Shown here: in pieces, positions 5,858 through 60,143 of the stretch
Layout of the letters: each line of letters begins with the position of its first letter
How positions within the stretch are numbered: the first letter of the stretch is position 1
DNA from: Perna viridis
Lineage: Eukaryota
Reading direction: 5' to 3'
Assembly: GCA_037379345.1 (NCBI GenBank)
Contig: CM074524.1
Coordinates: forward strand, 33,551,644-33,615,643
DNA length: 64,000 nucleotides
Program-made: the position numbers and the translations under genes
Notes under the pieces: model-generated
The model's input: the letters and a program-made list of their open reading frames with translations, nothing else
The model's database searches: none
What the model was told of the DNA's origin: nothing

Positions 5858-8800
5858 AAATAATCAATGGCATCCATCCTGCTGCAACAGAAAGCTTACT
5901 GGCTAAAGCTAGAATATTGATGACAAGTCCCTTGTCTGAGAGTTCTGTAAAATATGAGCGAAATGTATCCTTTAAATACCAGCAGTTTTGTTACTGAATG
6001 AAGCTCCTGCAAAATTCCAATGGCTGTTCGTAAATACACCTCTTTCAAATAAATGATATGAATACAATGTTTTGATAAAAAGTAAGCAATGGCTTTAATG
6101 CATTTTAAAACTCAACACTGGCAAAAGCTAACGTTGATTTTAAGTCATTTGTCTGAGAGTTTTTGTATAATACATATGTATGCGCGAAATTTATCCTTTA
6201 TATACCGATGGTTTTGTTTCTGAACGAAACTATGACTGTTCTTAAATTTATATCTTTCTAATGTACGGCATAAATATATTTTTAAAGAGCAGATAACGGC
6301 TTTAGCGTATTTTTAAAAAATAGAATCTTTTTTATATGAGGTGAAATAGTGGGAAAGTGGTTACACTCTTTGAAACGTTCAGGTTTCCCGCACGCTCAAC
6401 GATGCACGAACCTTCAATGGGAAACGTGAACGTTTCAAGGTGTGTAAGACTGCCAAAATAAATGATATTAAACAAAAAATTAAAAATAAACAAGTAGAAT
6501 TTTAAATATTTTCCATATTCCCAAAACACGTATTTACCTAAAAATTGTATTATTCCGACCACAATTCCTGCTATTCCAGACATCAAGAAAAATACAACTG
6601 AAGTGCTCTTCCGTCCAAACCTAAATAAAAAAGATGGAATTAAAGTGAACGCTTATATGTACTGTACATGTACTATAAAGATAACTAATTTGATCAGTTT
6701 TGCAATTTCTGTTTACCTCCCCTTTCCAGTTAGGATAATTTATTCTTATCAGAGAAGATTTTTTTGCGAGTGTAAGTTCTACAGGTCTGTATATTGCGGA
6801 AAAATAACTTCCATGGAAATATAGCTCAATTAAAGCATTTTTTCGTGAAGCAAATAGGATTTACAACAAACATTGTATGTACACGTGATACGCCAATACT
6901 CACCTATTGGCAAGGAAACAAACAAAGAATGAAGACGATTCCATTAATCCAAGAAGTGACATATTCAAGTAGAGATTCCCAGAGAGTTGTGACACTCCAA
7001 ATGAAATGGCGTAAAAGCCGTATCCGCATGAAATCCTTAAATAAAACATGTTATCGCTGTGACCATGCGGTAGATATGTTATTGCTATAGGAACAAACTA
7101 CCATGAAAATGATTTTATCCAGTAATTGATCAATTTAATTGATTTCAATTTTGAAAACACATTGCATGGTTTGGGATTTCATTTATGAATGGCTCATATC
7201 TATTTCAAAAGAAAGAAAAAAGCTAAGGACATTTTCTGTTTTCAGTGGTTTAGAATTCTTTCATTTTTTCGTTTTTCATTAAAAGGTAAATTTTATGTAC
7301 ATGTGCATAAACTCTAAAACGACTAAAAATGATTTCTTACCACGTAAATCCTAGTAACAATGTTATTTTCAGTAGACGTGTGTTTTTTAATATATCCAGT
7401 ACAGTATATTTCCGCCCTTTTTCAACATTTTGCACCAGTTTAGATAATCTTTTGAGAACTTTATCTTTGTTCGGTGGGTCAACTCGATTAATCTGTGCCA
7501 CCTTGACCATGACATCGTAGGCGTCCTCGATTTTTTTATGCGATACCAACCATCGGTAACTTTCTGGAATAGTTCTACAAAACACGTTATTTCAAAATGA
7601 ACCAGTTTTATACATAATTTAATTCTGAAATACAATACATTTTAGTATCAAGACAAAAATATGTATGACCTTTTACTGAATCCAAGCTAAAAACATAATA
7701 CCGGATTTCTCAATCTTCAAGATAGGAATATCCGATTACTCGGTTCCATGGCGAATTATTTCTAAACTAATCGTTTAAAAATTGATATAAGCTAGACTGA
7801 CAATAAATTGTAACTTTGCAATAAAAATATGGTCTGTCACAGTTTTAAGTTCAGTTTGATAAACACCTTATCCTCTTCAAATAATTGAGGAGGAGGGTCT
7901 ATTTGATAAATTGTGTCATCCCAGATTTCTTCGTAGAATGAAATTTAAACTTACTAGCTAAATCATTCTGGAATAATAATAATTCGAAAGAATACTAAAT
8001 GCAATCAGCACCATATAGTAATAAAAAGAAGTCGTTGCTCTATTATTTCTTAATCGCTTTGTTGACAGAAAGCAACTTTTTTCCGACGCAGTCGGTATAG
8101 TTTCGCTTTTTACCCTTTGACCTTAAAGACGCTCTTCTATGGAAACGCAATTCACCTGATCGCAATTCTGTTTCCCGATTGTGTGGCGTTCGAAAAAAAC
8201 TGTTTTGAAAATTTGAAATTGCGTGAAAAAAAAATGTATCGAAAATTTAAAATTGCGTGCCATGTGTTATTTTCATGAAAGAAATGTAGAAACTTAGAAG
8301 TAAAAAGAACAAAATTTTACTGCGTCGGCTATCTTTTTTTAAAGAATAATACATGTACTTGTTTCGGAGAGTAATCAAGGGAACCAAGGTTATAGCGGTA
8401 GTAAAAGGATGCAAACCAGGGACAAAGACCAGACATGGAAAACAGACATACACAACAAAGAACAAAAAGTAAATAAAATCAAACATATAAAGTAACAAAA
8501 GCAAATGAGCAACTCTGAAAACTGGGAGCATGGACCAGGTGTACCGATAGGGTAACCTCTGCTTTTCTTGCAACACCCGCCGAGTTGCTCATAAAAAGTC
8601 TGTCCGGGGTAGACAAACGAGGAAAGGAAAACTATGACCCGTTGAATAAATCAGTTTTCATGGTGCAGATGGATACACCATAACGAACCACGAGTTCATG
8701 ATGACGACAATAAAACTTCTGTAGTGATGACTTCAATCTTGTAGCAACATAACCCTGTTCTAGAATCCTATTTGTTAGAGTTCTAGCGAGATACAAAAAG

Positions 8801-11107
8801 TCTGCGTAGTTTCGGCAAGCTCTGGCATAACGTATGAGTTGTGATATGATCACTGCATACGCAGGTGCTGAAGGGATGTTGCCACAGATGAAAGGAAAGT
8901 TGACAATTTTGAATGAAAAGTTATCATGTTTGTCGTAAAGTTTGGTCAATAGTTTTCCTTTACCATCGATTTCTAAGTGTAGGTCAAGATATGAGGCTGA
9001 CTTCACAGTGTCTGTAGTATCCTTTATCTCAAGTTCTTTGTGGTAGATGCCATGTATCAAATCCCCGAAATTAGGATTGTTTAAAGATAATACGTCATCT
9101 GTAAAGCGGAAACTGAGATTAAAGGATCTAGCCAAACGATATTCTTTCTTTCGGATCAGATCAGCTATAAAGTCAGCCTCATAAGAGTGAAGGAATAGGT
9201 CAGCAAGCAAAGGAGCACAATTTGTTCCCATTGGAATGCCGACCGTTTGTTGAAAAACACGTCCACCACGCTGGACAAATATGTTGTCGATTAAAAATTC
9301 CAGCATTTTGTAAACATCTTTCAAGTATCAAGTAGTTATTATTAGGCGAGCACGTTTCTTCTCCAAAATAATGTTTTATACACACTGTTAAATCTTTTAC
9401 CAACCTAACGGCAAGAAACCAGGGGAGACAGAACACAGCTGCTGCAATCTGAACATACATCCAGTCGTGGAGTAAATAACACATCAATCCATTAGTAATA
9501 GCGCCTAATGGCCACATTGGAAGTGACAATACCATCGACCTATGCTTCATTGGTATAAACTCAGCAAGATATGCAATGTCTATAGTAAGGTACCATCCAC
9601 ATCCAATACCAACGAGGAAACGTATAGCTGCAAACATCTCCCAGCTTACAGAAAAAGCACCTACTACATTAAACACTAAGAGAATTACTATAGAGGCGTA
9701 GTAAGTTGGTTTACGTCCGTACAGATCACCTACTTGACCGGAAACAAATGCACCAACAAGAAGTCCAAACATTTGGATTGTAGTAATTGTTGACATGATC
9801 CACTTTTTATCACAAACAAGGTCAAACTGCAAAAAAAGGCATTTCATTGCATTATTGCATTTTAGGTGTGTGTAAATTTTGATTTGTTGTATTTTTACAA
9901 CTATGCACATCCGGGGTACAATGTACTTTACTAAAACCACCAAAATTTATATTCTGGCGGTCGAAACTATAATGTTATACTTACAAGACTTCGACATATA
10001 TCGAGCAGTTTGAATGCTGACCTATTTCGCGATGAGTTAACGTCCTGTCCTAAATGTAACTGTAGGTGCCCGTGGGCAATTAAATTTTCTCTAGTGCCCT
10101 CTTTACATTCATGCTCGCCAAAGTTTTAATAATAAATGTATCTATGACGGCGGAATAATTATTGAACATATCCTTTTGTGAAACGATTTATAATACTTGT
10201 GCATGTTTATATTCATTACGGTACAACGCTTTGTTACAGAAGTCCTCGTGTTGTTTTATTTCTAAGTTGATATAACAATCAGTATCTCGTTATATCGACC
10301 TAATATTCCGTTATAATGATATACTTTCGGTTTTCTTCCTGGAAATTGAATAAAATCCCTCATTTTACGTATAATATGATTCAACTTCAGTTTTTGATTC
10401 ATTGATATCTAATACATTGTATCCTCTGTACGGAATTCAATTTTCTTTTCGTTACTCTTCTAAAGCAAAAGGTAAAGTGGAAAGCTTTAAATGTCTACAA
10501 CGCTAGGTTTTGTAAATGGGAGGCTATTTTCAATTATGTTGTTTGGTTGGTTGGTTTTTTCTTTGTTTTTATTTTCTTTTTATTTGTTTGTTTGTGTGTT
10601 TTTCGTTGGGTTTTTTTTCGTTTGTCTTTTATTTCTTTTAATTCCTCTGACGTTGTAATGCACTCAACTGAACAGCCAGTCAATTATGACAATTAAATAC
10701 ATTCGTTAAGGCGGCGGAGAAATATCCTTTATTCAAATTTAAGATGTTTACATTTTTGTGTGTATTTGTTACTTTTAAATCTAACTCATTTCTTGCAAAA
10801 TTACCTCGCTCACTATTGTATTCATTGCTGGGTCAAAGATTTTGGTCGAACAATCCAGTTCTTCTGTGATGTTTTCAATTTTACAGACTTGATCAAATGT
10901 TGAATTTGGCATGTAACGTGTCCCAGATTCCGTAACCCAGGTACATGTCCAGTCCGGGATGACTCCTCCAAACGCCATCATTAGAACGCTCCATGCTATG
11001 GTAGCTTTACTTCCTAAAACAACTATCGTCAGTATAAACTGGAATCGTCCGAGACCGCCCAAGTCCGTCAAGATGTTTTCAAGATATTCGTTCAGTTGTA
11101 ACGACAT
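5827..11107 (-). CDS. SLC22-family (organic cation/anion transporter-like) MFS transporter, paralog 1, coding exons 1-6
   Basis: GT-AG exons in consistent phase: 10805-11107 (ATG), 9405-9826, 7341-7574, 6904-7035, 6538-6620, 5827-5944. Motifs GGLGRFQ, FDLVC, GDLYGRKP, IPESYRWL, GNLYLN, FGRK, SELYPTVVR. Last two exons not found in window. Confidence 0.93.
6364..6444. mobile_element. Tiny fold-back MITE in an SLC22 intron
   Basis: About 26-bp imperfect inverted repeats (cactctttgaaacgttcaggtttccc / gggaaacgtgaacgtttcaaggtgtg) flanked by TA on both sides. Confidence 0.6.
8368..9320 (-). mobile_element. 5'-truncated Penelope-like retroelement (Naiad-type), copy 1, in an SLC22 intron
   Basis: ORF 8632..9324 with PLE RT motifs QQTVGIPMGTNCAPLLADLFL, FRFTDD, SYLDL, KLYDK, ISQLIRYARAC; 3' UTR shared with copies at 25.2 and 41.9 kb. 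Confidence 0.9.
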
Positions 11108-11319
11108 TCTGTATATACAGGTAAAGAAACAAAACACAATAAATGATAATCGAACTCAAAATGATGTAACAGCTGGTACCGAGCAGCTTGATACGATCAC
11201 AGTTTAGAAGTAAATGCAAAGAAATATAAATGACTATACATATGTCAATTTACATATATATATAACTAGAATGGATATGGTATTATGTATATAGACATTT
11301 AATTATTCTCTGCTCTTAC

Positions 11320-16000: not shown

Positions 16001-18606
16001 TCCAAAGTAGAGATTAAATATGCAATAATTGACCAGAATAATGACTGTTTCAGTTTGCAATCACTAAGTGAATAAATATACATTGTGTTCGGCTTTATCA
16101 AGAAAATATTATAGCGGAATTACTACTCATTAAGGAGTCACGCCGTATGACCTAGATACCTATAGTGATGTGAAATAGAAATTCCAGATTCATAGATCAT
16201 CAAATAATATTTATTTTGACGTATAGGGAAAAACCCTTACACTAATGATTACAAAGTCCAATCACTTAAGTTTGATTTCTATGGTTCCGATTAAATTGGA
16301 AGCTGTCGTAAATTCCAAAGTTCGAAAAAACGATTAAATTGAAATGTTATGTCAATATCTATTATTTCTTCTGATTTATCCATAAGGTCTATATATTATT
16401 TCTGCCTTAAAGCTAGCCAGCCCACCCCCACCCCCACCAAAAAAATATATCTGGCTCTGTTCGGCTATAACTTATATTGATGACCCCCTGAAATCTTGGA
16501 TCCACTCGTGCCAACATTCATTAAGTAAGTATAATAAGACAAGTTCGCGTCAATTGTGTGCTAAATTTAAATATATATTACATGACATGGTTTGTTATGA
16601 CATCCTCTAGCCTTCATGTTAGTAAATATCATATGAAGTTGATATGGGAAAGGGCATTCAGTGATTTTTGTTTAATTTAGTAATTGAACATAAAGGATTA
16701 AATCTATGGTCATTTCACTGTATACTCATTTTGACATATTTTCTGTTATTTATTGGCAAAGAGAACTGAATAAATGCCCCTGTAGCTTCAGTTCTAATTT
16801 TATGATTTAATAGGTATGGACTGTACAATATACCTTTTACTGTGTATTTTGCAATGTAAAACAGACTTCTTAAAAATACAGAATTTATATGGAGAATTTG
16901 TCAAAAGACAACAACCCCACCGGATTTAAAAATGTCAGCTCAAAGCCACACATTGGTCTTCAACGAATGCGTGCGACGCGGAAACCCTCAAACAATCTGG
17001 CAGGCTACAGCTGGCCCAAAAACATTTAAATTGCAAATCGATATGAAAATAAAATAGTAAAGGCACAAAAGCTTACTCCTCGGCAATGAATGTGATGTTA
17101 AACAGAATGGTAATGAGTATAGTTAACTTCCGACTATTAATTAAACAAAAACGCACTTGATTTCTTTCGTACAAAAACATCTAAGAAATGTCAATGAATT
17201 TATTATGATATAATACAAACGCATATATTTTTCATTGAACAAACCGTTTATTCAGACTTACCTTGCAAAAATATCGATGTACTGGCTTTCACTCAATAGT
17301 AAAATATTAAATGCCTACATAAACCGCGTTGAGCCAATCAAATAGACCGGATTACTCAGATGATTTTTTGCGTATTTAAAGAAAGAAAGGGGGTGAAACT
17401 TAACTTCATCAACACTACGCTTATAATTTTGGTGTTATGCTGCTGTGTTTTTTTTTATAAAGTAAGCGTTATTGATGTGGATGTTTCAGATCTGTGGTTG
17501 ATCTCATATCGCAATGCTAGACCAAACAAATTTCATTTCTTACCGTTTAGAACAGTATGTAAAATCTATACATGTATATGTTTCGAGCATTTTTTCTGTC
17601 AATTTAGTATTTTTTTAACGATTTTTCGTTTACTTTTCGTATCGATCTTATTATTTTTCACAATGATTTAGCTATTGTAATATAGTATAAGCAACATATA
17701 TAACACTTTACATGTATAAAAAAAATACAAAAAAGAAAGAATAAAAACGCAATAACTGATTTATTTCTGTTTGAATTTCGGAAATGTTCATGCAGTATTA
17801 AAGAATAGGGGTAACAACAAAATTACCGAAACTTAATCCGATCCATGATCAAGTAAGGTCAAAAATCAATCTTACAAACAAGATATTACACCACTGGAGT
17901 ATCTGCTACCACAATGGTCCAGATTTGGTACAGTCATTTCAAACAAAATGGTGGGTTAAATCTAGGATTTAAAGGGTGCCAAATTACCATCTTCCATTGC
18001 GGCGTGAATATACCAGTGGTGAACAAATAGCATTTGCACGTTATTGTCGTAAATCAGCTGTCATATAAGCACACAGAACAATAGGATAGCAAAATATCAA
18101 ACTTTATACCATACTTAAAAGAACTGTGTTAAATGGAAGGTGTTAACACTAGTGATATGTGTATTTACAACTGCTTGGCCTAGTAAGCCCAACGCTATTA
18201 TGTAATAAAGAAAAGAGTATTGACCTCTAGCCTTAAATAAAATAACAGTTATATCAATGGGGGAAAATACATTGAGATATTGTTTGTGTGTTGAAGAAAT
18301 ATATATGGAACGCCATAGCTGCTTTATGTTGACTGATATCATTATGTTGTTATACGTGTTTATTTCAAGGTGATACTTAATATCTTTGTGGTCATACTCT
18401 TTTACTTTGTTGTGATACTTTTTCACTTTGTGGTCTTAATTTGTCCTTTTGTTATGGTACTTTTCACTTTGTGATCATACTTTTTCACATTGTTGCGGTA
18501 CTTTTTCGCTTTGTGAACATACTTTATCGTGACGCAGTGATTCGTTATGTTATAATACCTTTACATTATATGATGACATTTTCCCGTTGTGGAAATAGAC
18601 AAAAAA

Positions 18607-19870
18607 ATGGCCGAAAGCAAAATTACTGATGTGTTACAAAAAATCGGACTTGATCATTTGAATGCAAACTTCGTGAGAGAAAATAAATCACACCAAACAT
18701 AACATGTTTGCTATCAGTTGAAGAGATGAAAACATTAGGCATTTCACAAACATCAGACATGGTGAAACTTAGAACTGAATGTGTGAAATATGGTGACAAT
18801 AAATACACAACACAAAATAGATTTGATATTCCGATGTCTACTTTACACAATTTATTGGACCAAGACTTTAAAATATCAGAAACTGCAAAAATACTAGTAG
18901 TGTCAGAGCGGACAATATATCGTAGAATGATAAAATTCAGTCTAAGTAAATATGATTTTTCTCTAATTAGTGACGAGGGACTTGATGCTCCACTATTGGA
19001 AGTAACTATCCATTCTGCAGAGAAAATATGTTAAAACAAATGTATATTACGAAAGGTATACGAGTTCAAAGATGACGTCTTCGTGATTCTATTCATCGTA
19101 TATATACACATGGAGTAATTAAGCGGAAAAAGGGTAGACTTCGTCGAAGAGTTTACAATGTTATAGGCCCTAACCATCTCTGGCATGTCAATACAAATCA
19201 TAAGCTAGTTCGTTGGCGAATTATTGTTGTTGGCGGAACAGTCGGTCGCCTTGTAACTTTCCTGAAATGCTATGACAATAACACATCTAAAACTGTGTTA
19301 GAATGTTTTCTTTCAGGAGTTAACAAATTTGTTCTACCCTTAAGAATCAGATTAAATAAAGGTCTCCAAAATGTATCTATTGTAGACTTTATGTTAACTG
19401 AAAGTGGCGAAGGCAGTATAATAAATGGTACTAGCACCCATAATCAGCGTATAGAAAAACTTTGACGCGACGTTTTCGAGGGAATTTTAAGTTATTTTTA
19501 TAACTTGTTTTATCCCATTGAAGATTTGGATATACTTGACTCGTTAAATCAAGTTCATCTGGCCGCTTTACATTACATATACATGGATGAATTGAAAAGA
19601 AGATTGGAGTCTAGCCAAGCTTCATGGTCTGGTCGCAGAATTAGACTATTGCAAAATCCTGTTTGAATACCCTTTATGCAAGATTATGTAATCGATGGAT
19701 ATTTTGATGTTGCTAGCGCAGAGGAAGGTGGTCGCCCAATTCTCGAATCTTTCAGTAATTTGATAGGTGAGGAATGTAGAGAAATACTGGGAGAAGAAAT
19801 ACATCACACATACGATAATTATGCAATTGATGAATTGTATCTTGCAGTTGAGGAAAATTATCTATTCTTA
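18607..19870 (+). pseudogene. IS3EU-type DDE transposase (SAM-like + HTH + integrase core), left arm, disrupted
   Basis: MAESKITDVLQKIGL..., AKILVVSERTIYRRM (HTH), RRVYNVIGPNHLWHVNTNHKLVRW, DNNTSKTV, STHNQRIEKL*RDVF; frameshifts and stops. Confidence 0.85.
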
Positions 19871-20400
19871 TCTCTCAAAATAAGTATTAATGACTACAAG
19901 CAACAATCTCTTAATATGTACTGTAAAATATTTGAAACACTCCCCTCTAGATATGCCATTGTCTATTACCATGTTAAACTATTGTGAAGACTATGTTTAC
20001 ATACACTTGCTAAAACATGTAACAAAACTAACTACATGTAATACAAAATACTAACAGAACATTCAACAAAACTAAATTACTGGTACAAAAAAATCAGTGA
20101 GATGATGGAAACCATCTTCATTGAAAACTATGTCCGGCATTTAAAAACAGGCACATCATATCTATATAATAACAGTTCATTTATCAATTAAATACTATGT
20201 AATAAAGCCATAATGACAGCAATATACATGTACATGTATTTTACAATTTAGTGAATGTACAAAAATATGGACCCACTATCCATACCATAGGAAATTGAAA
20301 TACATTTATATCTTTCTGAAATATATTCTTGATACAGTTTTCTGTATTTTTGTACATATTTAAGGTTTATGTGAAATAAAAGGGGATGATTCTGTTTTAG

Positions 20401-21580: not shown

Positions 21581-23399
21581 TCCATTTAGTATATATTGCT
21601 GTATTGCCAGGGCGGGGCCCACTTAGATTTATTCCATCTCAATGATTTTTAGTTTCCATTGTAACTAGGGACTCTGGCCTCTTTGAACTGATATTATGGT
21701 GTGTTTAAAAAATTTCCACAGTGGCTAAATATTAGAGGTTGAGGGTTGTGATCTTTTAACCCCGCCACATTTTTTTTTGCGACTGTACAAAGGAACTTCT
21801 GGCCTCTGTATTTCTTGTTTCATCTTCCTCTTTAGTTTATTTTTATGTTGTTTGAGTAAACAGGGGCAACTTTTTCGTTGTACTTTTGTATAATGATGTT
21901 TTTGGGTCAGGTGCAGCCTTGCAGTATGCCCTGTGGTATGTGGGGTTCCTCATCTTTCATTTTCATCCCGGGGAGGTTGTTATCTCTTTGACATAATCAC
22001 CATACCTATTTTTGTTATATCATATAGGTTTTGTGCCAAAAACTGACGAAGTCTGCAAAACTCTAGTTTTAATGTTATAAATATTGCTTTAACGTTCTAG
22101 TCACAATGTAAATCTGTTATGACTGCACATTGTAAAAGTTCTACTCTGTTACATACATAATGTAAATTGTGTGCCAAAGTTTGCCAAAGTCTTGTTTAAA
22201 TGTTATAGATAAGAAGATGTAGTTGTTTAGTTTTGTTTAATTCTCTAGTCATTATTATTCTGTTACAATAGTACATGGTAAAAGTTCTACCCCTTTTTAG
22301 CTCATCTTGCCCAGTACCAGAGTGAACCTTTGCCATCACAATGTAATCACTGTCATCTGTCTTTCATCAGTCTGTCATAAACTTTACACATTTTTGTCTT
22401 CTTACTTGGAACTGATTGACTGATTTCTAATAAAAAGTGCTCTTTGAGATGTTCTTTTCAAATAATCTTAAAATGCTTCAAAATTTTTCCACCTTTCAAG
22501 GGTATGATGTTCCAGTAGAGTAAGAGCGATTTTTGCAGAATCGTGTTCTTTGAGAACCTCTTAGTTGACATTTTGCAGCTTGCCTTGCAGAGTGAAAAAA
22601 ATTTTGCCCTCTTAAGGCATGAGTTTAAATGCCGAACATGGTTTTAAATGAAGATGGTTTCCATCATCTCACTTATATTTTGTACCAGTAATTTACTTTT
22701 GTTGAATGTTCTGTTAATATTGTGTATTACATGTAGTTATTTTTGTTATATATTTTAGCAAGTGTATCCAATCATAGTTTTCACAATAGTTTGACATGGT
22801 AATAGACAATGGCATATCTAGAGGGGAGTGTTTTAATTATGTACATGTTTAAGACATTGAGAGATTGTTGCTTGTAGTCATAAGTATTTTGAGAGATAAA
22901 ACATATGTATTTTTTTCTCAACTGCAAGTTTCTATCTCTCCATTTCCTGAACAAGCAATGGAAAGTATTGAATTCACTGAAAGGCTCATAATAGTACTTA
23001 AGTTTCAACATCAAATGAAGTTACCACTATATATCAATTGTAAAACAATGGTTGCTTGGTTTCTACTTCTTGTGTTCACGAAAATTTCCAAATCATATTT
23101 TAATTGTAATTATGGATAAAATATGCTTTTACTTTCAGCTTATCACTATTCACAAAAGAAGCAACTGAAAGAAGCTGCAATTATCAAACATCTTGCTTCC
23201 CATACAGAGAGCGATCAGATGCTTATTTACTCAGTGGTTTGTGAACAAAACTAGGTTATTTATGACTCAATTAAGTTTTTCAGCTACTTTTTGAAGTATG
23301 TCTTTTTTGCCACTTTTATGTCTTTTCTTGGAGATATTTGCCATTTCAGTTTTTGTTCGTATATGGCAAAGATAATTAACAAAGTAATCGACAAATCTT

Positions 23400-24206
23400 A
23401 TTCACACTGCCTTTGCATCTTTCAGTTAAACATAAAGTCTGCAATGGATACATTTTGGAGACCTTTATCAGATCTGACACTTTAGGTAGACCAAATTAGT
23501 CCAAACTCCACAAAGAAAGCATTCTAACACAGTTTTTGGATGACTTATTGTCATAGTGTTTCAGAAAGGTTACAATGCGACTGGAACCGTCTATTCCGTC
23601 AACAACAATAAATCGCCAACAAACTAGCTTATGATTTGTATCGACGTGCCAGAGATAGTTAGGGCCTATAACATTGTAAACTATTCGATGAAGTTTACTC
23701 TACTTCCGCTCACTTACTCAATATGCATCTATGCGATGAATAGAATCACGGAGACGACATCTTTGAACTCGTAATTAACATTAGTTTTAACATATTTTCT
23801 CCGCAGAGTGGATAGTTCTTCGTTATTTCAAACAGTGCAGCATGAAGTCCCTCGTCACTATTTAGAGAAAAAATCATATTTACTTAGACTGAATTTTAAT
23901 GACATTCTATGATATACTCTCCGCTCTGACACTACTAGTATTTTGCAGTTAATGATAGTTTAAAATCTTGGTCCCGTAAATTTGTAAAGTAGATATCGGA
24001 ATATCAAATATACTTTATGTTGTGTATTTATTGCCACTCAGTTCTAAGTTTCACCATGTCTGATGTTTGTGAAATGCCTAATGTTTTCATCTCTTCAGCT
24101 GATAGCAAACATTATGCCTGGTGTGATTTTTTTCTGTCACGAAGTTTGCATTCAAATGAACAAGTCCGATTTGTTGTAATACATCAGTAATTTTAGGTTC
24201 GGCCAT
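23400..24206 (-). pseudogene. IS3EU-type DDE transposase, right arm, disrupted and internally deleted
   Basis: Reverse-complement copy of the left-arm gene; retains WHVDTNHKL, GIDGSSR and VRSDKG. Confidence 0.85.
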
Positions 24207-24294
24207 TTTTTTTTCTATTACAAAAAGCGGGAAAATGTCGTCATATTATTTAAAGGTATTACAACATAACGAATCACTGCGCCACGATAAAGAC

Positions 24295-24590
24295 CATAAA
24301 GCGAAAAAGTACCACAACGAAGTGAGAAAGTATAACCACAAAGTGAAAAAATACCACAACAAATTGAAAAAGTATCACCACAAAGTGAAGAAATACCACA
24401 ACAAACCGAAAAAGTACAACAAAAGTGAAAAAGTATCACCACGAAGTGAAAAGGTACCAATACAAAGTGAAAAAGTATCACCACAAAATGAAGAAGTACC
24501 ACAACAAAGCGAAAAAGTACCACAACTAACAAAGAGAAAAAGTATCAGCACAAAGTGAAAAAGTACCACAACAAAGTGAAGAAGTGAGAC
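24295..24590. repeat. ~21-bp subterminal tandem repeats (aaagtgaaaaagtaccacaac) of the IS3EU-like element; mirror array at 18370-18530
   Basis: Degenerate tandem array; source of spurious ORFs 24218..24532, 24235..24558 and 24375..24593. Confidence 0.85.
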
Positions 24591-25158
24591 CACGAGATAA
24601 TGATATCAGCCAAGATAAGGCAGCTATGGCGTTCCGTTCCATAGAAATACATACACTTGTAATGGGAGGTATTGTATTGAAAATCAAGTCGTTTGTCATT
24701 GTTGTTCTGACTACAAAAGTAATTTAAAAGGTGTTTTTATGGTTGTATATGACAGAGATGTTTTTTCTCTCCATACATGTATACATGTAACGAGCCTTGT
24801 GATTAGTTAATAAAATATCTTATTTTGATAGTTTTACTAAAGTATAAATAACCTAATCACTAGATGAAATGAAATACATCTCATATATTTTAATGGATTT
24901 AAGTAAACCCTTCCATCGATGGCGTGAAATCTTTCACTACAAAAATGAAAAGCCTATGGATTATCTCAAAATGCACTTAAATTCATTAAAACTACCTTCC
25001 TGACAGACAACAATCAGTGAAACTTGGTACAGCACTGAGTGAATGGGAGAATATCTACAAAGGGTTTATATATGTGATTTATGAAGATCACCAAAGTAAA
25101 TATCAACAATTACTAGAAACATATAAATTGCAAACATTATAAATCAGACACATGAGAA

Positions 25159-25441
25159 AGAGTAATCAATGGAACCGAAGTTATAGCGGTAATCAAAAGA
25201 ATGTAATCCAGGGACAAAAAGCCAGACATAGAAAACAGACATACACAACAAAGAACATAAAGTAACTAAACATACATACAAAGTAACAAAAGCAAATGAG
25301 CAACTCGGACTCCACTAAAAATTGGGAGCATGGACCAGGTGCACCAGTACGGTAAGAGTCCTCTGCCTTTCTAGAAACACCCGCCGAGTTGCTAATAAAA
25401 GTCAAGTCCGGGGTAGACAAACGAAGAAAGGAAAACTATGG
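25159..25441 (-). mobile_element. Solo 3' UTR/terminal fragment of the Naiad-type PLE, copy 3
   Basis: Highly similar to 8368-8636 and 41888-42109; same 3' end. Confidence 0.85.
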
Positions 25442-26192
25442 CAATCAAAGTATTTAACATCATACACAAAAGACGTCCATCATACTAATATGACATAATG
25501 AACATTGAAAACACCAATTACACTTTAAGGTACCAGCATTTAGCAGCAGTTCCATCAGTAAGAACAACCACATAAAGGCATACAATCATTCAAGTATACT
25601 GCGGTATGGAAAGAGCTGCACAACCACTTTGGACTTCTTTTAGTTAGTTTTAATGCATGGAATGGCAGCTCATGCAACTTAGCTTCATGTTCTTTGTTAA
25701 AAGTTGTGCTGTTGTGTTGTTGTTAATTTTATATTACTTGCTTATATTACTGTCTGATCAGTTTATCAATACGAACTGTTTAATGTACATATTGCTAGCT
25801 GCTTTATTATAAAGCCTTTATTTAATCTCAGTTCATTTCTGCATTTGCATGTTTGTCTTGTGGGGATGAACAAAGTGTAACATTACAAATGCTGCCATTT
25901 TATCTACTTGCTTTGTTGCTTTGTGTGTGTTTGATACTGTATGTCTTGTATGCTAAGTATATTATTGTTCTGTTATACATGTTGATTGTAAAAGCTCATT
26001 TTTGTGTTGTGATGTTTAATATGTACCTACTTCAAATATAGCTTTTCTGACTTTGAACTTTAGAAAAGCTAATAATATACAAATAAAAAATCTTTTTTAC
26101 AAAAATATTTATTCAAACATTTGTACCGTGCAAAATAAATTACCGCAAAGACATATGTATAATAGTGTTACTATGCAGATGAAGCATTAACA

Positions 26193-26712
26193 GCCCCGTG
26201 CAGGTCCGGGTGATAAACGAATAGGCCTGCAGCAGCGCTAAGCTTGTCGTAAAAGACGACTTAATAGTGCTCAGAACCCTAGCCGGGGGCTAGGGCGCTC
26301 TGCCCACAGAGCAACTGGGATGTGTGCCCCAGGTGGTGGAATGGGATACCCCTGGCGTCTTACATACTGGGGTTGTCAGGCTATAATACGGAAAACCTGA
26401 CCGCAAACCATAGTGGTGCACCGTGTTGGGAAAGATACTACGTTCCTTGCACGTTAAAGAACCCTACTGTGGTATTCTCATGGAGTAGGAACCATAGGGC
26501 TCCGCCACAGGAGGCTAAATTGCCCGACCCTACCCACCTCTCCCTATTTCCAGTGGCAATCAAAATTTGTCGACCCCATTATCCTTGTGTCCTATCCCTT
26601 TTTCACTCCATCATCATTTCATGTTCATTTTATCATTAATTTCATGTTCAACGTCTGAATATAGCTGAAATATTGCTGCTCGGACGTTAAACCCCAACAA
26701 ACAAACAAACAA
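26193..26712 (+). mobile_element. Full-length 520-bp SINE-like retroposon (structured non-tRNA head, Meta-like core, (CAAA)n tail), copy A
   Basis: 12-bp TSD gaagcattaaca (26181-26192 / 26713-26724); core motif ...ccgtgt...gcacgttaaagaaccc; two further copies in window. Confidence 0.9.
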
Positions 26713-41887: not shown

Positions 41888-44140
41888 AGAGTAATCAAGG
41901 GAACCAAGGTTATAGCGGTAATGAAAATAATGTAATCCAGGGACAAAGACCAGACATGGAAAACAGATATACACAACAAAGAACATAAAGTAACTAATTT
42001 CATACATACAAAGTAGCAAAAGCAAATGAGCAACTCGGACTCCACTAAAAACTGGAAGCATGGACCAGGTGCACCGGTAAGGTAGGTGTCCTCTGCTTTT
42101 CTAGAAACATGGCCCGTTGAATAAATCAGTTTTCATGGTGCAGATGGATACACCATAACGATCCACGAGTACATGATAACGACCATAAAACTTCTGTAGT
42201 GATGACTTCAATCTTGTAGAAATATAACCCTGTTCCAGAAGCCTATTTGTTAGAGTTTTAGCGGATACAAAAAGTCTGCGTAGTTTCGGTAAGCTCTGGC
42301 ATAACGTATGAGTTGTGATATGGACATTCCATACGCAGGTGCTGAAAGGATGTTGCCACACATGAAAGGAAAGTTGACAATTCTGAATGAAAAGTTATCA
42401 CGTTTGTCGTAAAGTTTGGTCAATAGTTTTCCTTTACCATCAATTTCTAAGCGTAGGTGAAGACACGAGACTGACAAGTGTCTGTAGTATCCTTTATCTC
42501 AAGTTCTTTCGGGTAGATGCGATGCATCAAATCCCCGAAATTAGAATTGTTTAAAGATAATACGTCATCTATATAGCGGAAACAGAACTTAAAGGATCTA
42601 GCTAAACGATATTCTTTCTTTCGGATCAGATCAGCTATAACGTCAGCTTCATAAGACTGAAGGAATAGGTCAGCAAGTAAAGGAGCACAATTTGTTCTCA
42701 TTGGAATGCCGACCGTTTGTTGAAAAACACGTCCACCACACTGGACAAATATGTTGTCGATTAAAAATTCCAGCATTTTGTAAACATCTTCCTCTGTATA
42801 TTTGGAAGATTATTTGGAATTATTTCTTACAAAGTATGAGGAATCTCCACGAAGAAATATATATTTGTATCTAGGTGTACCTTCTTTTTTTGGAAAAACA
42901 ACGATGTATAATGTTTTTAAGTCGGGATTTTAACTGAGTATGGGGAAAAGAAATATACAGTGTTGAAAAATCATAGGTTTTAATGCTATTTTATTCAGAT
43001 AATAGTCTTGAACTGATTGTCTCCAAAAGATCTTTCGAATTTTTCAGGATGCTCATTGAATTAATACCACTACGGGAGTAACAATTGTGGTATGACTGCA
43101 GATCCTCTTTGACAGGTGTGAGTATAGAAGTTAAAAGTTTTGAAAGAGATTTGGTGATACAATTTGCAGATCCAGCTATGAAATGTTGTTTGTATGGATT
43201 CTTGTGGAGTTTAGGAATCCAGTACATAGACGGTAAATCACAATTATCGTCCTTGGTAGAGAGACCAAACGAGTATAGCACAGATTTATGGTTTTCCACA
43301 ATCTCTTCTTTAGAGAGTGTGGTAGCAGTATCAGTAGGTCTTTTCACTGCTATTATGTTCTACGTCTACCTCTGGTAATAAACATTGGATGTAAAACGTT
43401 TTGCAGACAAAACAATGTTGTTTTGGGCTTTGTCTGCTGGTACGACAACACATTTGTCATGTATAGTAGACACTTTTTTTGCTACATCGGGGTCTTTGGA
43501 AATTGATGTAGCCTTGGCACTCATTGACCTACTTAAAACTTTTATTCGTTTCAAAATGTAAGACCTCATGGCCTTTAACCACTCGGAGAGCGAATCAATG
43601 TCTTCTTGTTCTCGTTTTATCCATTTTCTTGCATAGTCCTCCACGGCAATCCATAAGAATTTTAAAGTTATAATTCCAATTTATGGAGCGTTGTTCACTG
43701 TACTTGGGACCTTAAGAAAGGATATTACGCAGAGATTCGTTTTCGATGATGGGTAAATCTCCCGTAACGACGTGACCAGAAGGACCATATTTGAATGGGG
43801 AGTTTTTGCAAGAACAGTCAGGTGGTTCAGTCTTGAAGTCCTCAATCTCGAGGTTCTGCAATAGCCTTTTATAACTGAAATTTTGGATGCAATGGGTGAA
43901 GCATAGGAATATGAAATAATTGGTATGGATTTGTCCTTGAAGCATGGGGGAATCTTGTTGGGAACGTCTTTGTGATGGACCTTTGTAGACAAACGGTAGT
44001 GGAACAAATGATCGTTTTTCTTAATCTTGACTTTTCACACAAACTGGTTTAAAGAGTCTGTGGAAACCAATATCCAAAATGATGGCAACAAGTCTGTATA
44101 ATGATGAGGTGGGTCTGAAAAACGTTCTTTTAACAATATT
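41888..44140 (-). mobile_element. Longer decayed Naiad-type Penelope-like element, copy 2
   Basis: PPDCSCKNSPF..GHVVTGDL..GPKY linker, VVPADKA, YWIPKLHKNPYK, TYDFSTLY, FRYIDD; many frameshifts; no C-terminal endonuclease. Confidence 0.9.
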
Positions 44141-48200: not shown

Positions 48201-51200
48201 CTAATGAATTGTATAATGCTGACACAGTTTCCTGCAAATCAGTTATGATGAAAGTATTTAAACGTGTATATGCTCCAGAATATCTCAAATATAAATCATG
48301 TATAAATACTTTAAAGAGATTCTTTAATTTCCTCTCCGAAATCTTTATCTTGACTAAAACCATTTGAAAAGGTAGAAAGCTGAGAAAATACTTTCTCTGC
48401 TTCAAATCCATTTCCACCCACCTGCTTCTGTATTCACTTTGGATAAACCCTGCTTGTTCCTGAAGTCAGAATATAAGTTCTTATTTCCTGAGCATTGAGA
48501 TTTTTATAATCGGGAGCAGTAATTCTAAATCAGCTATTTGTTAGCTTACAATCATGCCTCTCAATGACTATTGGAACAACAATTTTTGATTTAATCAATG
48601 ACTCCTAAACTAGAGAAAGTTTCTTTCATCTTGAGGTCAGTTAAGGTTAAATATTAGTTAATAACAGGTACAAACGTAGCCGTTCTTCCTTTCCAAATTT
48701 CGTCTTATTTATGTATGCCTCCTAGAGAGGCCGTATTTATATCAATATCAGCCGACATTTTATAATTTTCACGATCTTCTTGTATAATTCGGTAATACGT
48801 TAATGCAATATAAACACATTTTTAAACATGCTGAATCTGACAAATCATTTATCAACTTAAATAAGGCACAAATTGATATTGTATTCATTGCTTCGATCTC
48901 CATTCGGAACGCCAAATTACATACACATGCAAATCATAGCCCTGAAAATACAAACACAAAAATATCTTATAGTTGAAAACGACGGGTGTTTTATTGTCCA
49001 TAGACCGGAAAGGTCATCGCTTCCTCCCGAATCATTTACTTTATGATGATTGTCATTTGTACCTCCCATTTACGGGTTCTTTGTCAATACAATATAAGAA
49101 TAAGAGATGCAGTATGATTGTCAATGAAATAGTCAAAGCTAACCAACGAACAATTATTCTACAGGTCACCATACGGTCTAAGTCTATTTTCGTTAGGACC
49201 AAAAAGCCAAAAGTTTTGTGATCACTAATTAAAAACTAAGTATACATGAATATAGATATCAGCATGTTGACCAATGTCTATGATTTTCAATGGTATCAAG
49301 AAATTTGTATTCACTCTAAGATTTTTCTACTTAAATACAAATGTGTACTACCAAAATCGCTTGAATTGACATATTGTTTGAAGTGATAACCGCTGGAGTA
49401 TTTTTGCTTCACCTTAATAGATTAATTAGTACTTGTATGGTCTGTTACGTTTTTATAAGTGCTATTTTTGGTGTTCTGTTAACGACTTGCGGCGATTTTC
49501 GTAGTCAGAATCAACAACAAAAAATAGATAACCTATAGAGTTTATTATTTCGGTCATTGTCGGAACTGGTAGCTACGTTTACGTTTACATATTGTTAGTT
49601 ACCATTGTTAACTAAGAAAATATGTTTTTTTTTGTTTCTGTCAGGATCTTCAAATAGATTCTTTGATCATCGACTCAAAAGGAAATGATCAAAATGCTTC
49701 CAAGATCATCAACGCATTTCTACTCGAAATTCGAAGGTTTATTATGAACCATTTCAATAAACAGCATGCCCTAATTAGGCAGGACGAAATGCTGTTTGTC
49801 ATAAGTATTCCATCGGTGAGGGCAGAAACGGTTAGGACATTTTTAAATGAAGCCTGGCGAATGGTATGTCTACACAAAATATTGTCATCATTAAGATCAT
49901 AATAAATTAGTTTACTATCGCACATCGTTACATCATATTGCACAGTCTTTGAGATCGCAAACAAAAATACAACGATGTACCAGAGTTAAAGATCGGATTT
50001 TGATATATTTGCATGCAGACAAAGTAGGAAGAAAATGGCAAAGCCTCTTCGATTTTGAGTTAATTTTTTCACACAATGAACACACTTTTTTATACGCTCT
50101 ATCTTGAATCAAAATTATTTGTAAAACATAATGGCCGTTGCCGGTAAGAACTTGTAGTTAGTTTTTATCATTTATCTACTCACTCACTCTATTTTATTGT
50201 CTTATTTTATTATTGGAATAGTCTTATTTATTAAGAAACAATCTTCTTGCTATCTATTAAAGTTTTGATTTAGTTAAGATTTAGTTTGATTTCACATTAA
50301 CTGCATGTAGACATGTAGATTGTTTGTTTGTTTGTTTGTTGGGGTTTAACGTCCGAGCAGCAATATTTCAGCTATATTCAGACAATGAACATGAAATGGA
50401 TGATATAATGAACATGAAATGAAAAAAAAGGATGGGTCACAAGGATAATAGGGTCGACAAGTTTTGATTGCCACTGGAAAAAGGGGGGATGGGTAAAATC
50501 GGGCAATCTAGCCTCCTGTGGCGGAGCGCAAAGGTTCCTACTCCTATCGAATACCACAGCAGGGTTCTTTAATGTGCGAGGAACGTGGCATCTTTCCCAA
50601 CACGGTGCACCACTATGGTTTCGGTCAGGTTTTCCGTATTATAGCCTGACAACCCCAAGCATGTAACACGCCAGGGGTTCCCCATTCCACTGCCTGGGAC
50701 AACCATCCCAGTTGCTCTGTGGGCAGAGCGCCTAGCCCCCGGCTAGGTTTCTGAGCACTATATAGTCGCCTTATACGACAAGCTTAGCGCTGCTGCAGGC
50801 CTATTCTTTTATCACCCGGACCTGCACGGGGGACAATACCTGAACCGTGCAACCATTATTTCAATCAGTCATCAATTAATAATCAGTGATTAATCTGTCA
50901 AACTTGTGATTGACTGCTTAAATACCTGAACCGTGCAACCATTATTTCAATCAGTCATCAATTAATAATCAGTGATCAATCTGTTAAACTTGTGATTGAC
51001 TGCTTATCATTTCATTAAGATATTGATTATTTCATTTGTACCAGCATCACCAATGATGACAAAAGGTCTAGTAGCTGTTCTACTCCGTCCTTACATCAGT
51101 CACATTAAATCTGTGTAATCTCTACCTCAAACTATATTTAAGCAATATTATTTAAGCTTTTCCCATTGATTATATTCATATTGAAGATATACAACTCTTA

Positions 51201-57425: not shown

Positions 57426-60143
57426 TTACATTGAATCGTCGCATTGATTAAAAGTATCGTTTATTTCCCCTTGAATATCTTTGTGGTTATTATCATTATT
57501 TGTTTCCACTTTATTATCCTTTTTATCCTTTTGGTTATAAACGACAATCTCCTCTATGGTGTCCTTTAGTGCCATATTGTTTGTCTCGTTGAGAAGTACT
57601 ATGGAGAATGCAGAGATCACAAACATTGTTCCTAGCAGCAAATACATGAGACCGGGAATATGCTTGCTCTATAAAACATGTAATCTTGAGATTTAATGTA
57701 GTATAATAAATAAAAAGTCATTTTTGATTGTTTAACTACGTTATGATTTTATACATTATGAACATCTTATACTGATATATTATTATGAGAATGGCGGATG
57801 ATGATTTTTTCGGAAGTAGGGAGAGATATTGTATGGGGAATTGGGAGGTGATGTACGGAGAATGGGCATGTTTGTGGGTGGATTGGACGTGGCTTTAGGG
57901 ATTTGGAGATTGACTGATAACAAGAAGAGTTGAAGATTGCGGAATAATTTTTAAGGGGAAAAAGAGCTGATCTGGGAGATAGAAAGGGGTCTAATAAGAA
58001 TAAGATTTTTATGAGGAATAAGGACAGGGTGAATAAGATGTTTTGGGAAATGTTAAAGTGGCATGAAAAAAGAAACTTAAGGGTCAAGAGAGAAGTTTTA
58101 TGAGTAGATGGCGAATAGTAAATGGTAAATTTAAAAATGGGAAGTTTTTAATATTCAAGTGCTGTGCTAAGTAACATATACACGTAATATCATTTATTTA
58201 TTGTGTGTTTGTTAAAATATGCTCATAATATGAAGTTACTTTATTCAAAATAAGAAGAATAGTTTAAAAGCTTTTATGAGGTAGCAAGACGTTTCATGAT
58301 AAAGAAATGAAACCGTTATTCGACCTACATCTTTGTCACAAGTAGCTATCGACGCCTTTGTGATTTACCTAAAAACATTGTTTAACTTACAGCATAAACT
58401 AGCTGTGGTGCAACCATTGCCCCTACACGGGAGACTGTATTGTTAATTCCATAACCAACATTTCTGAAACAAATTGAATTATTCAACCAATACATTGTTA
58501 GCGTTACGTGTAATGGTATCTGTACATGTTTTTTTCAACTTACATGAGACCCGTGCAGGTCCGGGTGTCAAACGAATAGGCCTGCAGCAGTGCTACGCTT
58601 GTCGTAAAAGGCGACTAAATAGTGCTCAGAACCTTAGCCGGGGGCTAGGGCGCTCTGCCCATAGAGCAACTGGGATGTGTGCCCAGGTGGTGGAATGGGG
58701 TACCCCTGGTGTATTACATGCTGGGGTTGTCAGGCTATAATACGGAAAACCTGACCGCAAACCATAAAGGTGCACCGTGTTGGGAAAGATGCCACGTTCC
58801 TCGCACGTTAAAAAACCCTACTGTGGTATTCTCCTGGAGTAGGAACCATAGGGCTCCGCCACAGGAGGCTGAATTGCCCGACCCGACCACCTCTCCCTAT
58901 TTTCAGTGGCAATCAAAATTTCTCGACTCCATTGTCCTTGTGTCCCATCCCATTTTTCATTTCATCATCATTTCATGTTCCTTTTATCATCCACTGCATG
59001 TTCATTGCCTGAATATAGCTGAAATGTTGCTGCTCGGGCGTTAAACCCCAAAAAACAAACAAACATTCAACTTACATGATACCATTACAAAGCTAACATG
59101 CAAATAAATATGAATCTGGTTAAATTATAATCAATGCAATCAAACTGTCATACATAACGCTAGTAATCAGGTATGTTGTTCGATTCACAATAAGTTCATA
59201 TGTAAACTGTAGAACGGTTTTTGGTTTGATTGGTTCTAATATATTTTATTTCTTTTGATTTCGTTTTTCGTTTCGTTTGATGTTATATTGAGTTCGTTTC
59301 GGACTTTACAGGTACTTCTGATACTCTATAATTGAACCATCATTAAATGATCATTATACTTTAAACTTATAGAAGGGTCTGAAAAATTACCAACGATGTT
59401 AGAACTATCAAATTTGGGAAGCAACGTTTTGATTATTCCCTCCGCGGGACACCTAGATGAACTGTCCCGTACTACCATACATCGTGTACTAAGTTACAGC
59501 CCTAGATTAATCCTATGAGGAGGAATGATCCGGCCAGCGAAAGCTATATTTTTATATAGCCTAGCTGTCCGAGTGGTCAAGGGCGCTGGACTTTGTACAG
59601 ACGGTGTTGCAATAGATGTCACAGCGATATTTAAACGTATAGAAAGGTCTGAAAAATTCCCAACAGATGTTAGAACTGTCAAATTTGCGATGCAAATTTT
59701 TGGTCGTTCCCTCCGCGGGACTCGAACTCGTAACTCTGTGACATCTATGGCAACACTGCCTGCACAAAGTCCAGCGCCCAAGACCACTCGGCCAGCAAGG
59801 CTATATAAAAATATCTAGCTACCATACATCGTGTACTAATATAGAGGCCTAGATTAATCCTACGAGGAGGAATGACCCGGCCAGCGAAAGCTATATTTTT
59901 ATATAGCCTAGCTGATCGAGTGGTCAAGGGCGCTGGACTTAGTGCAGGCGGTGTTGGTGTTGCCATAGATGTCATAGCGGAACGAGTTCGAGTCCCGCGG
60001 AGGGAACGACCAAACATTTGCATCGCAAATTTGACAGTTATAACATCGTTGGGAATTGTTCAGACCCTTCTAAAACTTTACATTATCTTCCGTGTATCAA
60101 TTTGATCGGATGGAGCAGTGCAGCGAATAGAGTCGTCACATTC

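Follow-up and report, generated by a model that had tools for sequence, protein, structure and literature searches.

So far, the fixed 5′ ends of retroelements that lack a promoter or Pol III signals have been put down either to internal promoters or to self-cleaving ribozymes. RTE elements, among others, are freed from their co-transcripts by HDV-like ribozymes (PMC6765202, PMC5786205). Pr77 of ingi/L1Tc, a short 5′ module common to otherwise unrelated elements, is an HDV-like ribozyme and a promoter in one. The mollusc LP-SINEs described by Matetovici et al. in 2016 (PMC4758252) begin with a head of ~70 bp that is common to the LINEs Nimb-17_LMi, I-3_DR, and RTE-9_CPB. The authors presume that this LP head has a promoter role and note the analogy to the promoter-plus-ribozyme of ingi/L1Tc; the word “pseudoknot” does not occur, and viruses are not mentioned, in the sections of their paper that were available. 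Exonuclease-resistant RNAs (xrRNAs), on the other side, are known from viral 3′ untranslated regions (UTRs), often in tandem, and as of 2021 had been characterized only in viruses (PMC8374639). A simple pseudoknot is not enough to halt Xrn1 (PMC10321173). Ribozymes, too, occur in the UTRs of linear RNA viruses, where they stand ahead of open reading frames (ORFs) or form pairs 186 to 399 nt apart (PMC13725137).

A composite SINE with a sharp 5′ end

The window that we analyzed is a 64,000-nucleotide stretch of Perna viridis contig CM074524.1. Comparing it with itself yielded three copies of one element, at 26193-26711 (+), 50324-50832 (−), and 58548-59065 (+), which are 86 to 92% identical, and no fourth match to the element. 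An earlier note on this DNA had described three copies of ~520 bp that start at the same point, two with TSDs of 12 to 14 bp and none with Pol III A or B boxes, and all of this was borne out. The copies start at 26193 (+), 50832 (−), and 58548 (+); the first, full length at 519 bp, lies between the two halves of a 12-bp TSD (26181-26192, repeated at 26713-26724), the third has a 14-bp TSD (58534-58547 and 59066-59079), and a pattern search found A and B boxes in none of the three. For the second copy, which adjoins an 86-bp tandem repeat, we looked for a TSD and found none. Runs of T4 to T8 are internal to all three copies, which argues against Pol III.

The element is made of several parts (coordinates of the first copy, + strand). 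Behind the head (26193-26271) come family-specific hairpins (26278-26401) that include words resembling Meta/MESC (26351-26387) when compared by eye with Supplementary Figs. S1 and S2 of PMC4758252, and then a word (26449-26464) that by eye resembles the Nin-DC core in the Lottia_Nin and Lsa_Nin rows; 12 bases of this core are common to Lottia_Nin, and the remainder is not alike. By eye, the likeness to Meta proposed earlier is thus limited to short stretches of a body that also carries a Nin-DC-like word. The element closes with a LINE-type tail (26640-26711) consisting of an AATATA hexamer and (CAAA)n.

With the published LP-SINEs and the MESC SINEs of pectinoids (PMC4758252), the element has in common the ~70-bp head, which is homologous to that of LINEs (by eye, from Supplementary Fig. 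S2 and not against Nimb-17 itself), TSDs of variable length, a tandem-repeat tail, the AATATA hexamer, the lack of A and B boxes, and a similar overall length. The Chlamys heads in the same figure show, again by eye, the same layout and hairpin word with other letters in the pseudoknot helix. The body differs from those of published LP-SINEs, having no CT-rich or tRNA part but short Meta-like words and a Nin-like core. Because a published head is joined to a different composite body, we class the element from its letters as a new LP-SINE family, that is, a non-autonomous retroposon, with the likeness of the body judged by eye. This kind of SINE and its head are already known.

In the 723-Mb genome, an 18-base word of the head has at least 8,241 exact matches (the reversed control has 0), and the tail pattern has 13,129 matches. 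All 120 loci sampled by similarity or by the head word belonged to one family, and the first stem of the head was kept in 111 of them. Among loci anchored by the tail, 19 of 30 ran unbroken from element position 1 to 4, and the others were 5′ truncated or internally deleted. Four of these 30 loci (L460, L463, L469, and L471) consist of the last ~60 bp only and all begin at element position 460 to 463, a place where contigs show loose ends too; such starts may reflect either a preferred truncation point or another family with the same tail.

The 5′ end of the family is sharp. TSDs were present in 61 of the 78 copies in which both ends were located, mostly 11 to 14 bp long, and their ends lay 0, 1, 2, 3, or more nucleotides before the CCCG of the first stem (P1) in 2, 13, 38, 5, and 3 copies, respectively. 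The boundary is thus 0 to 2 nt ahead of P1 in 53 of the 61 TSD-bounded copies, with a scatter of 1 nt. Both families that were checked start with a purine, this SINE with G and a family from metagenome contigs with A (17 of 21 copies). We weighed the possibility of an extra G derived from a cap; the metagenome family starts with A, and one base further out there is no excess of G. Where the first G is absent, T is the commonest preceding base (15 of 78 copies), possibly owing to microhomology at integration.

Fold of the head and its conservation across lineages

All of the stems named in the earlier note were found at their places. The head is predicted to fold into an H-type pseudoknot followed by a long hairpin (model R1 scores 64.5, 69.2, and 73.6 bits for copies 1, 2, and 3). 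P1 (26195-26198 with 26207-26210) closes an 8-nt loop, and this loop supplies one strand of the pseudoknot helix (26200-26206 with 26224-26230; with one extra pair possible, the structure spans 26199-26231). Between the strands lies an A-rich linker that ends in a conserved (A)GAATA word (26218-26223). A basal helix (26234-26240 with 26265-26271) then leads through an internal loop to a GTCG/CGAC hairpin with a near-invariant 7-nt loop (26246-26260). In a single head sequence, the pseudoknot is only modestly above chance, as 123 of 3,000 shuffles form one.

It had been claimed that differences between copies in the head stems keep pairing. We therefore looked at 59 genomic copies and found, among the 472 cells of the pseudoknot helix, 1 two-sided change, 9 one-sided changes, and 14 broken cells; the other seven stems had no two-sided change, and neither did the downstream hairpins at 26278-26401. 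As no stem has compensatory change beyond one cell, the argument from pairing within the family fails, and support for the fold comes from distant lineages and not from copies of this family.

Such lineages were found by pattern scans. Metagenome contigs gave at least 122 stretches with the head, viral contigs gave 13 matches (7 with the whole fold and 6 without it), and records of prokaryote genomes gave 9 loci. These 9 loci read as DNA of animals or other eukaryotes (contig ends, simple-repeat tails, and a LINE) or as chance matches (L350 and L354), and we take none of them for a bacterial version of the head. Six matches with short flanks were dropped, and the remaining 133 formed 32 clusters; the largest cluster, of 93, was divided into four groups, with 4 of its matches left unused, and the addition of this SINE family brought the total to 36 lineages.

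Under a fixed rule in which each lineage was read in its own register, at least 6 of the 7 pseudoknot pairs formed in 16 of the 36 lineages and all 7 in 11, whereas swapped halves of different lineages reached at least 6 in 9.4% of cases and all 7 in 2.3%, and 0 of 100,000 permutations reached the observed result. The 20 lineages that fail this strict test include 3 chance matches, copies without the 5′ half, decayed single copies, and bulged helices, the last in lineage L352 and in a LINE discussed below (L356). The basal helix passed in 24 of 36 lineages, compared with 32% for swapped halves. We then aligned 20 rows, chosen for keeping P1, and found two-sided changes at all seven pseudoknot pairs, with 88.3 to 91% of cells paired against 27 to 53% in slid registers; the 47 two-sided cells compare with a shuffled mean of 16.8, and 0 of 500 shuffles reached that number. 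P1 itself was paired in 86.7% of cells over three pairs, with two-sided change at one pair. The invariance of the GTCG/CGAC hairpin, its loop, and the AGAATW linker is partly by design, because these words served as search anchors; the stem letters were fixed in the search and the linker word stood in most patterns. When the letters of the hairpin stem and the pseudoknot were left out of the pattern, 7 contigs were returned, comprising 4 known ones, 2 chance matches, and a viral contig, L486, in which all 7 pseudoknot pairs form and the loop is kept while the hairpin stem has changed. A model built from 14 non-viral heads gave seven viral elements 33 to 72 bits and chance word matches 12 to 30 bits.

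These tests support the conclusion, drawn from comparison of sequences, that the fold has been selected at the RNA level, and with it the earlier proposal of a conserved structured RNA at the 5′ end. They also largely refute the idea that the head is a DNA promoter only, in which the fold would be incidental. That idea agrees with the role presumed in PMC4758252 and with the absence of covariation inside this SINE family, but given two-sided changes at seven of seven pseudoknot pairs and the presence of the head in RNA viruses, we regard it as very improbable.

Other searches and families deserve mention. A loose viral pattern was discarded: of its 120 stretches, 80 were parsed, and 3 of these were real and already known, the others being chance. 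Three further pattern searches returned 2 known among 11, 4 known among 4, and 7 known among 15 matches, with no new fold in the last. L275, L351, and L357 are retroposon-like elements of ~170 nt that carry the head in DNA that does not look animal, two of them at the ends of contigs from bacterial metagenome-assembled genomes. Several multicopy metagenome families (L230, L244, L257, L338, L339, and similar ones) have kept the linker and the hairpin and lost P1 and the 5′ pseudoknot strand.

LINEs with the head and with an HDV-like fold in its place

The earlier note had suggested looking for a partner LINE with the same head and tail, and one exists in another record. This LINE (L356/L479), in a record titled as the Solemya velum gill symbiont but probably host DNA, starts with the motif, is intact, with ORF1 and a 1,238-amino-acid APE-RT frame, and appears to be of Nimb/I type. 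Its 3′ end aligns with the tail of the SINE in 41 of 65 columns, a result reached by 0 of 2,000 shuffles. Since this LINE combines the motif head with a SINE-like 3′ end, in the SINE a composite body is flanked by a head and a tail of LINE type. In the P. viridis genome, no partner LINE was found among 66 scored of 5,316 candidates, and the 30 of 66 variant-pattern loci that were examined were all this SINE.

The closest LINE family to L356 in this genome (54% at the amino acid level) is 6.07 kb long, with an ORF2 of 1,247 amino acids that contains APE, RT, and RNase H. It shares pieces of the 5′ UTR with L356 further in (28 bp at 89% and 49 bp at 78%), but it lacks the motif at its start, and the resemblance of its tail to that of the SINE is not significant (1,266 of 2,000 shuffles). 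Instead, its first ~150 nt are predicted to form an HDV-like fold, with a 7-bp P1, an 8- to 9-bp P2, a UUGUCGU loop, and a CUAA junction. In 14 of 16 copies the fold begins with the very first base, and in 9 of 9 TSD-bounded copies the TSD is flush with the start. The descriptor is loose, being satisfied somewhere in 76 of 200 shuffles and by other segments in 6 of 36 motif loci, so the HDV-like reading rests on position and helix lengths; Rfam gave no match to this LINE head either. The list of clades with HDV-like ribozymes quoted from PMC5786205 does not include an I/Nimb-type clade. The family is of I/Nimb type and young, with a copy at G000:C12:15112252-15118324 (L389, 1353-7425) and 15 others in L388-L407, which are 96 to 99% identical and have intact ORF1 and ORF2. 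The motif (26243-26263) has the words UUGUCGU and GACUAA in common with the L389 head, where they form part of the loop and of J4/2; the first two letters are not kept in most distant homologues, and the sharing may be chance.

As related LINEs carry either the motif or an HDV-like fold at their start, the head appears to occupy the slot in which 5′ ends are made, and the exchange suggests, at the level of sequence, that the two do the same job. The HDV-like ribozymes of RTE, R2, and ingi/L1Tc have the same 5′ position as the head, apparently the same slot in the case of L356 and the 6.07-kb LINE, and Pr77 resembles the head in being a short module of otherwise unrelated elements. The fold is nevertheless not HDV-like: on the sense strand, the head lacks the nested double pseudoknot, the P3/L3 before P1′, and the J4/2-P2′ of that class. 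As the earlier note had judged by eye, neither of the two familiar topologies fits, for a loose HDV descriptor gave no sense-strand match in 3 of 3 SINE copies (a stricter one missed the control LINE head too), and the hammerhead core CUGANGA is absent from both strands of all three copies with 150 nt of flank. Rfam gave no match to the window element at E ≤ 10, with twister, twister-sister, pistol, hatchet, and other ribozymes and the known xrRNAs included. Among 19 homologous loci, at E ≤ 1, no match fell on the motif, which is a weak test, as Rfam also missed the HDV-like LINE head.

The head might then be a self-cleaving ribozyme of an undescribed class, cutting 1 to 2 nt before P1 and freeing the element from read-through transcripts. 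The replacement of the HDV-like fold between related LINEs, the sharp 5′ end, and the near-invariant unpaired letters all speak for this, as does the head on a LINE of the RTE clade (PMC4758252), a clade with HDV-like ribozymes (PMC5786205, PMC6765202). Against it stand the lack of any HDV, hammerhead, or Rfam ribozyme match and the 1-nt scatter of SINE 5′ ends, compared with the flush start in 9 of 9 TSD-bounded copies of the HDV-headed LINE. With the viral evidence below, we consider cleavage an unlikely function, with perhaps a quarter of the weight.

The head in viruses and its possible function

Viral contigs that carry the motif matched Pfam families for a tetravirus-type capsid (L093/L101), a nodavirus-type capsid (L098/L346), and RdRPs (L345, L346, L347, and L486); one, L130, has a 959-amino-acid frame without a Pfam match. 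The motif lies 7, 8, 12, 25, and 75 nt past the last stop codon in five lineages with RNA-virus markers and 102 nt past it in one viral contig without a Pfam match. In all six of these small lineages, it is on the coding strand and 87 to 231 nt from the end of the contig, which need not be the end of the genome, and L130 has a second, cut-off copy in tandem. (Two tandem heads also stand at the start of one element in L250, at 1375-1520.) A seventh contig, of 212 kb (L344), encodes an NAD-dependent DNA ligase and is from a large DNA virus, with the motif between two ORFs on the same strand. Because RNA viruses have no DNA stage, the head is selected there as RNA.

The place of the motif bears on the ribozyme. 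Linear RNA viruses do have UTR ribozymes, but those described in PMC13725137 precede ORFs or come as pairs, whereas the motif follows the last stop, where a cut would probably separate the coding RNA from its 3′ end. Self-cleavage therefore does not seem the likeliest function, and a position just behind the last viral stop would fit an exonuclease block better. Viral xrRNAs (flavivirus classes 1 and 2, dianthovirus/luteovirus, and coremin) are, like the head, pseudoknotted and ~80 nt long, and they open viral 3′ UTRs, in some cases as tandem copies; they differ from it in secondary structure and letters. Further hallmarks of xrRNAs are a ring of ~15 nt around the 5′ end and a block to Xrn1. 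Of the xrRNA traits, the head shows a pseudoknot-dependent fold (by covariation) and the start of the 3′ UTR in 6 of 6 small viral lineages, with a tandem copy in one. As 3′ UTR placement and tandem copies are the usual setting of xrRNAs (PMC8374639), they favor an exonuclease block.

We tentatively prefer, at a little under even chances, the reading of the head as an xrRNA-like exonuclease roadblock, since this one function would account for where the motif lies in viruses, for its tandem copy, for the boundary before P1 with its 1-nt scatter, and for the exchange with a ribozyme. The pairing of 7 of 7 pseudoknot pairs in L486, which was found without pseudoknot or stem letters in the pattern, counts for it, as do the absence of Pol III boxes and the internal T runs. 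Several observations count against it: there is no Rfam match, known xrRNAs included; more than half of the lineages (20 of 36) do not pass the strict pseudoknot test; a purine as first base is just as compatible with a transcription start or an HDV-type cleavage site; the near-invariant letters of loop and linker suit a catalytic or protein-binding core; and a leader of 2 nt is short for an Xrn1 halt. The behavior of simple pseudoknots reported in PMC10321173 weighs on the same side.

Alternatively, the fold may bind a host protein or the translation machinery, serving stability or cap-independent translation, while an internal Pol II promoter sets the 5′ end, an arrangement like the dual Pr77. 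The invariant loop, the purine at +1, the promoter role proposed in PMC4758252, and the motif between same-strand ORFs of the large DNA virus would agree with this, and many of the motif-bearing viruses presumably belong to groups that lack poly(A) and use 3′ UTR enhancers. It would, however, require two functions in 80 nt, translation would be of little gain to a non-coding SINE, and the promoter part cannot explain RNA viruses. We rate this reading as doubtful, slightly below the ribozyme.

If the head is an exonuclease roadblock, the SINE RNA would derive from Pol II read-through of longer host transcripts. The ~80-base head would fold into pseudoknot and hairpin, with the invariant loop docking with the linker to lock the fold, and would halt 5′-to-3′ exonucleases, Xrn1 or Xrn2 stopping ~2 nt before P1. 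What remained of the decaying host transcript would be an RNA of unit length, to be copied back into the genome by a LINE, probably one of Nimb/I type that mobilizes the SINE through the common tail. The viral counterpart of this product would be a short non-coding 3′ RNA.

More broadly, we think it rather probable that the head is a mobile RNA module that has been passed among LINEs, SINEs, several RNA-virus lineages, and a large DNA virus, that it generates the 5′ ends of RNAs, being either the first exonuclease-resistant RNA used by cellular retroelements or a self-cleaving ribozyme of a new class, and that it is swapped freely with HDV-like ribozymes. Trimming by exonucleases down to a folded block would be a third, new way to fix a 5′ end and would supply the cellular xrRNA that was expected but not characterized as of 2021 (PMC8374639); if the head cuts instead, it would represent a ribozyme of a new class. 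In both cases, the LP heads found on elements of molluscs, insects, fish, and turtles would be reinterpreted, and retroelements and RNA viruses would be linked by a common non-coding part. The earlier suggestion of an unclassified 5′ processing or translation element stands as to a conserved structured 5′ RNA that is neither HDV nor hammerhead, but its head had been published as the LP head (PMC4758252). Neither Rfam nor the literature searched, a search outside which lay Repbase, figures, subscription journals, and bioRxiv supplements, contained a description of the fold, of its covariation, of copies in viruses, or of an exchange with an HDV-like head; the letters of the motif led to no paper and were absent from the supplements of PMC11481361, and LP-SINE terms led to the 2016 paper alone.

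The window holds other features besides the SINE copies. An LTR retrotransposon at 27284-34631 has 373-bp LTRs that are 99.7% identical, gag/pol-type frames in pieces, and an integrase core at 32728-34212. A long inverted repeat pair (18307-20145 and 22624-24635; 82 to 87% identical) has transposase-like frames, a dispersed repeat with reverse-transcriptase-like frames recurs at 8368-9320, 42105-42790, 25157-25440, and 1493-1613, and exons of an MFS/sugar-transporter-family gene lie at 9200-11155 (−).
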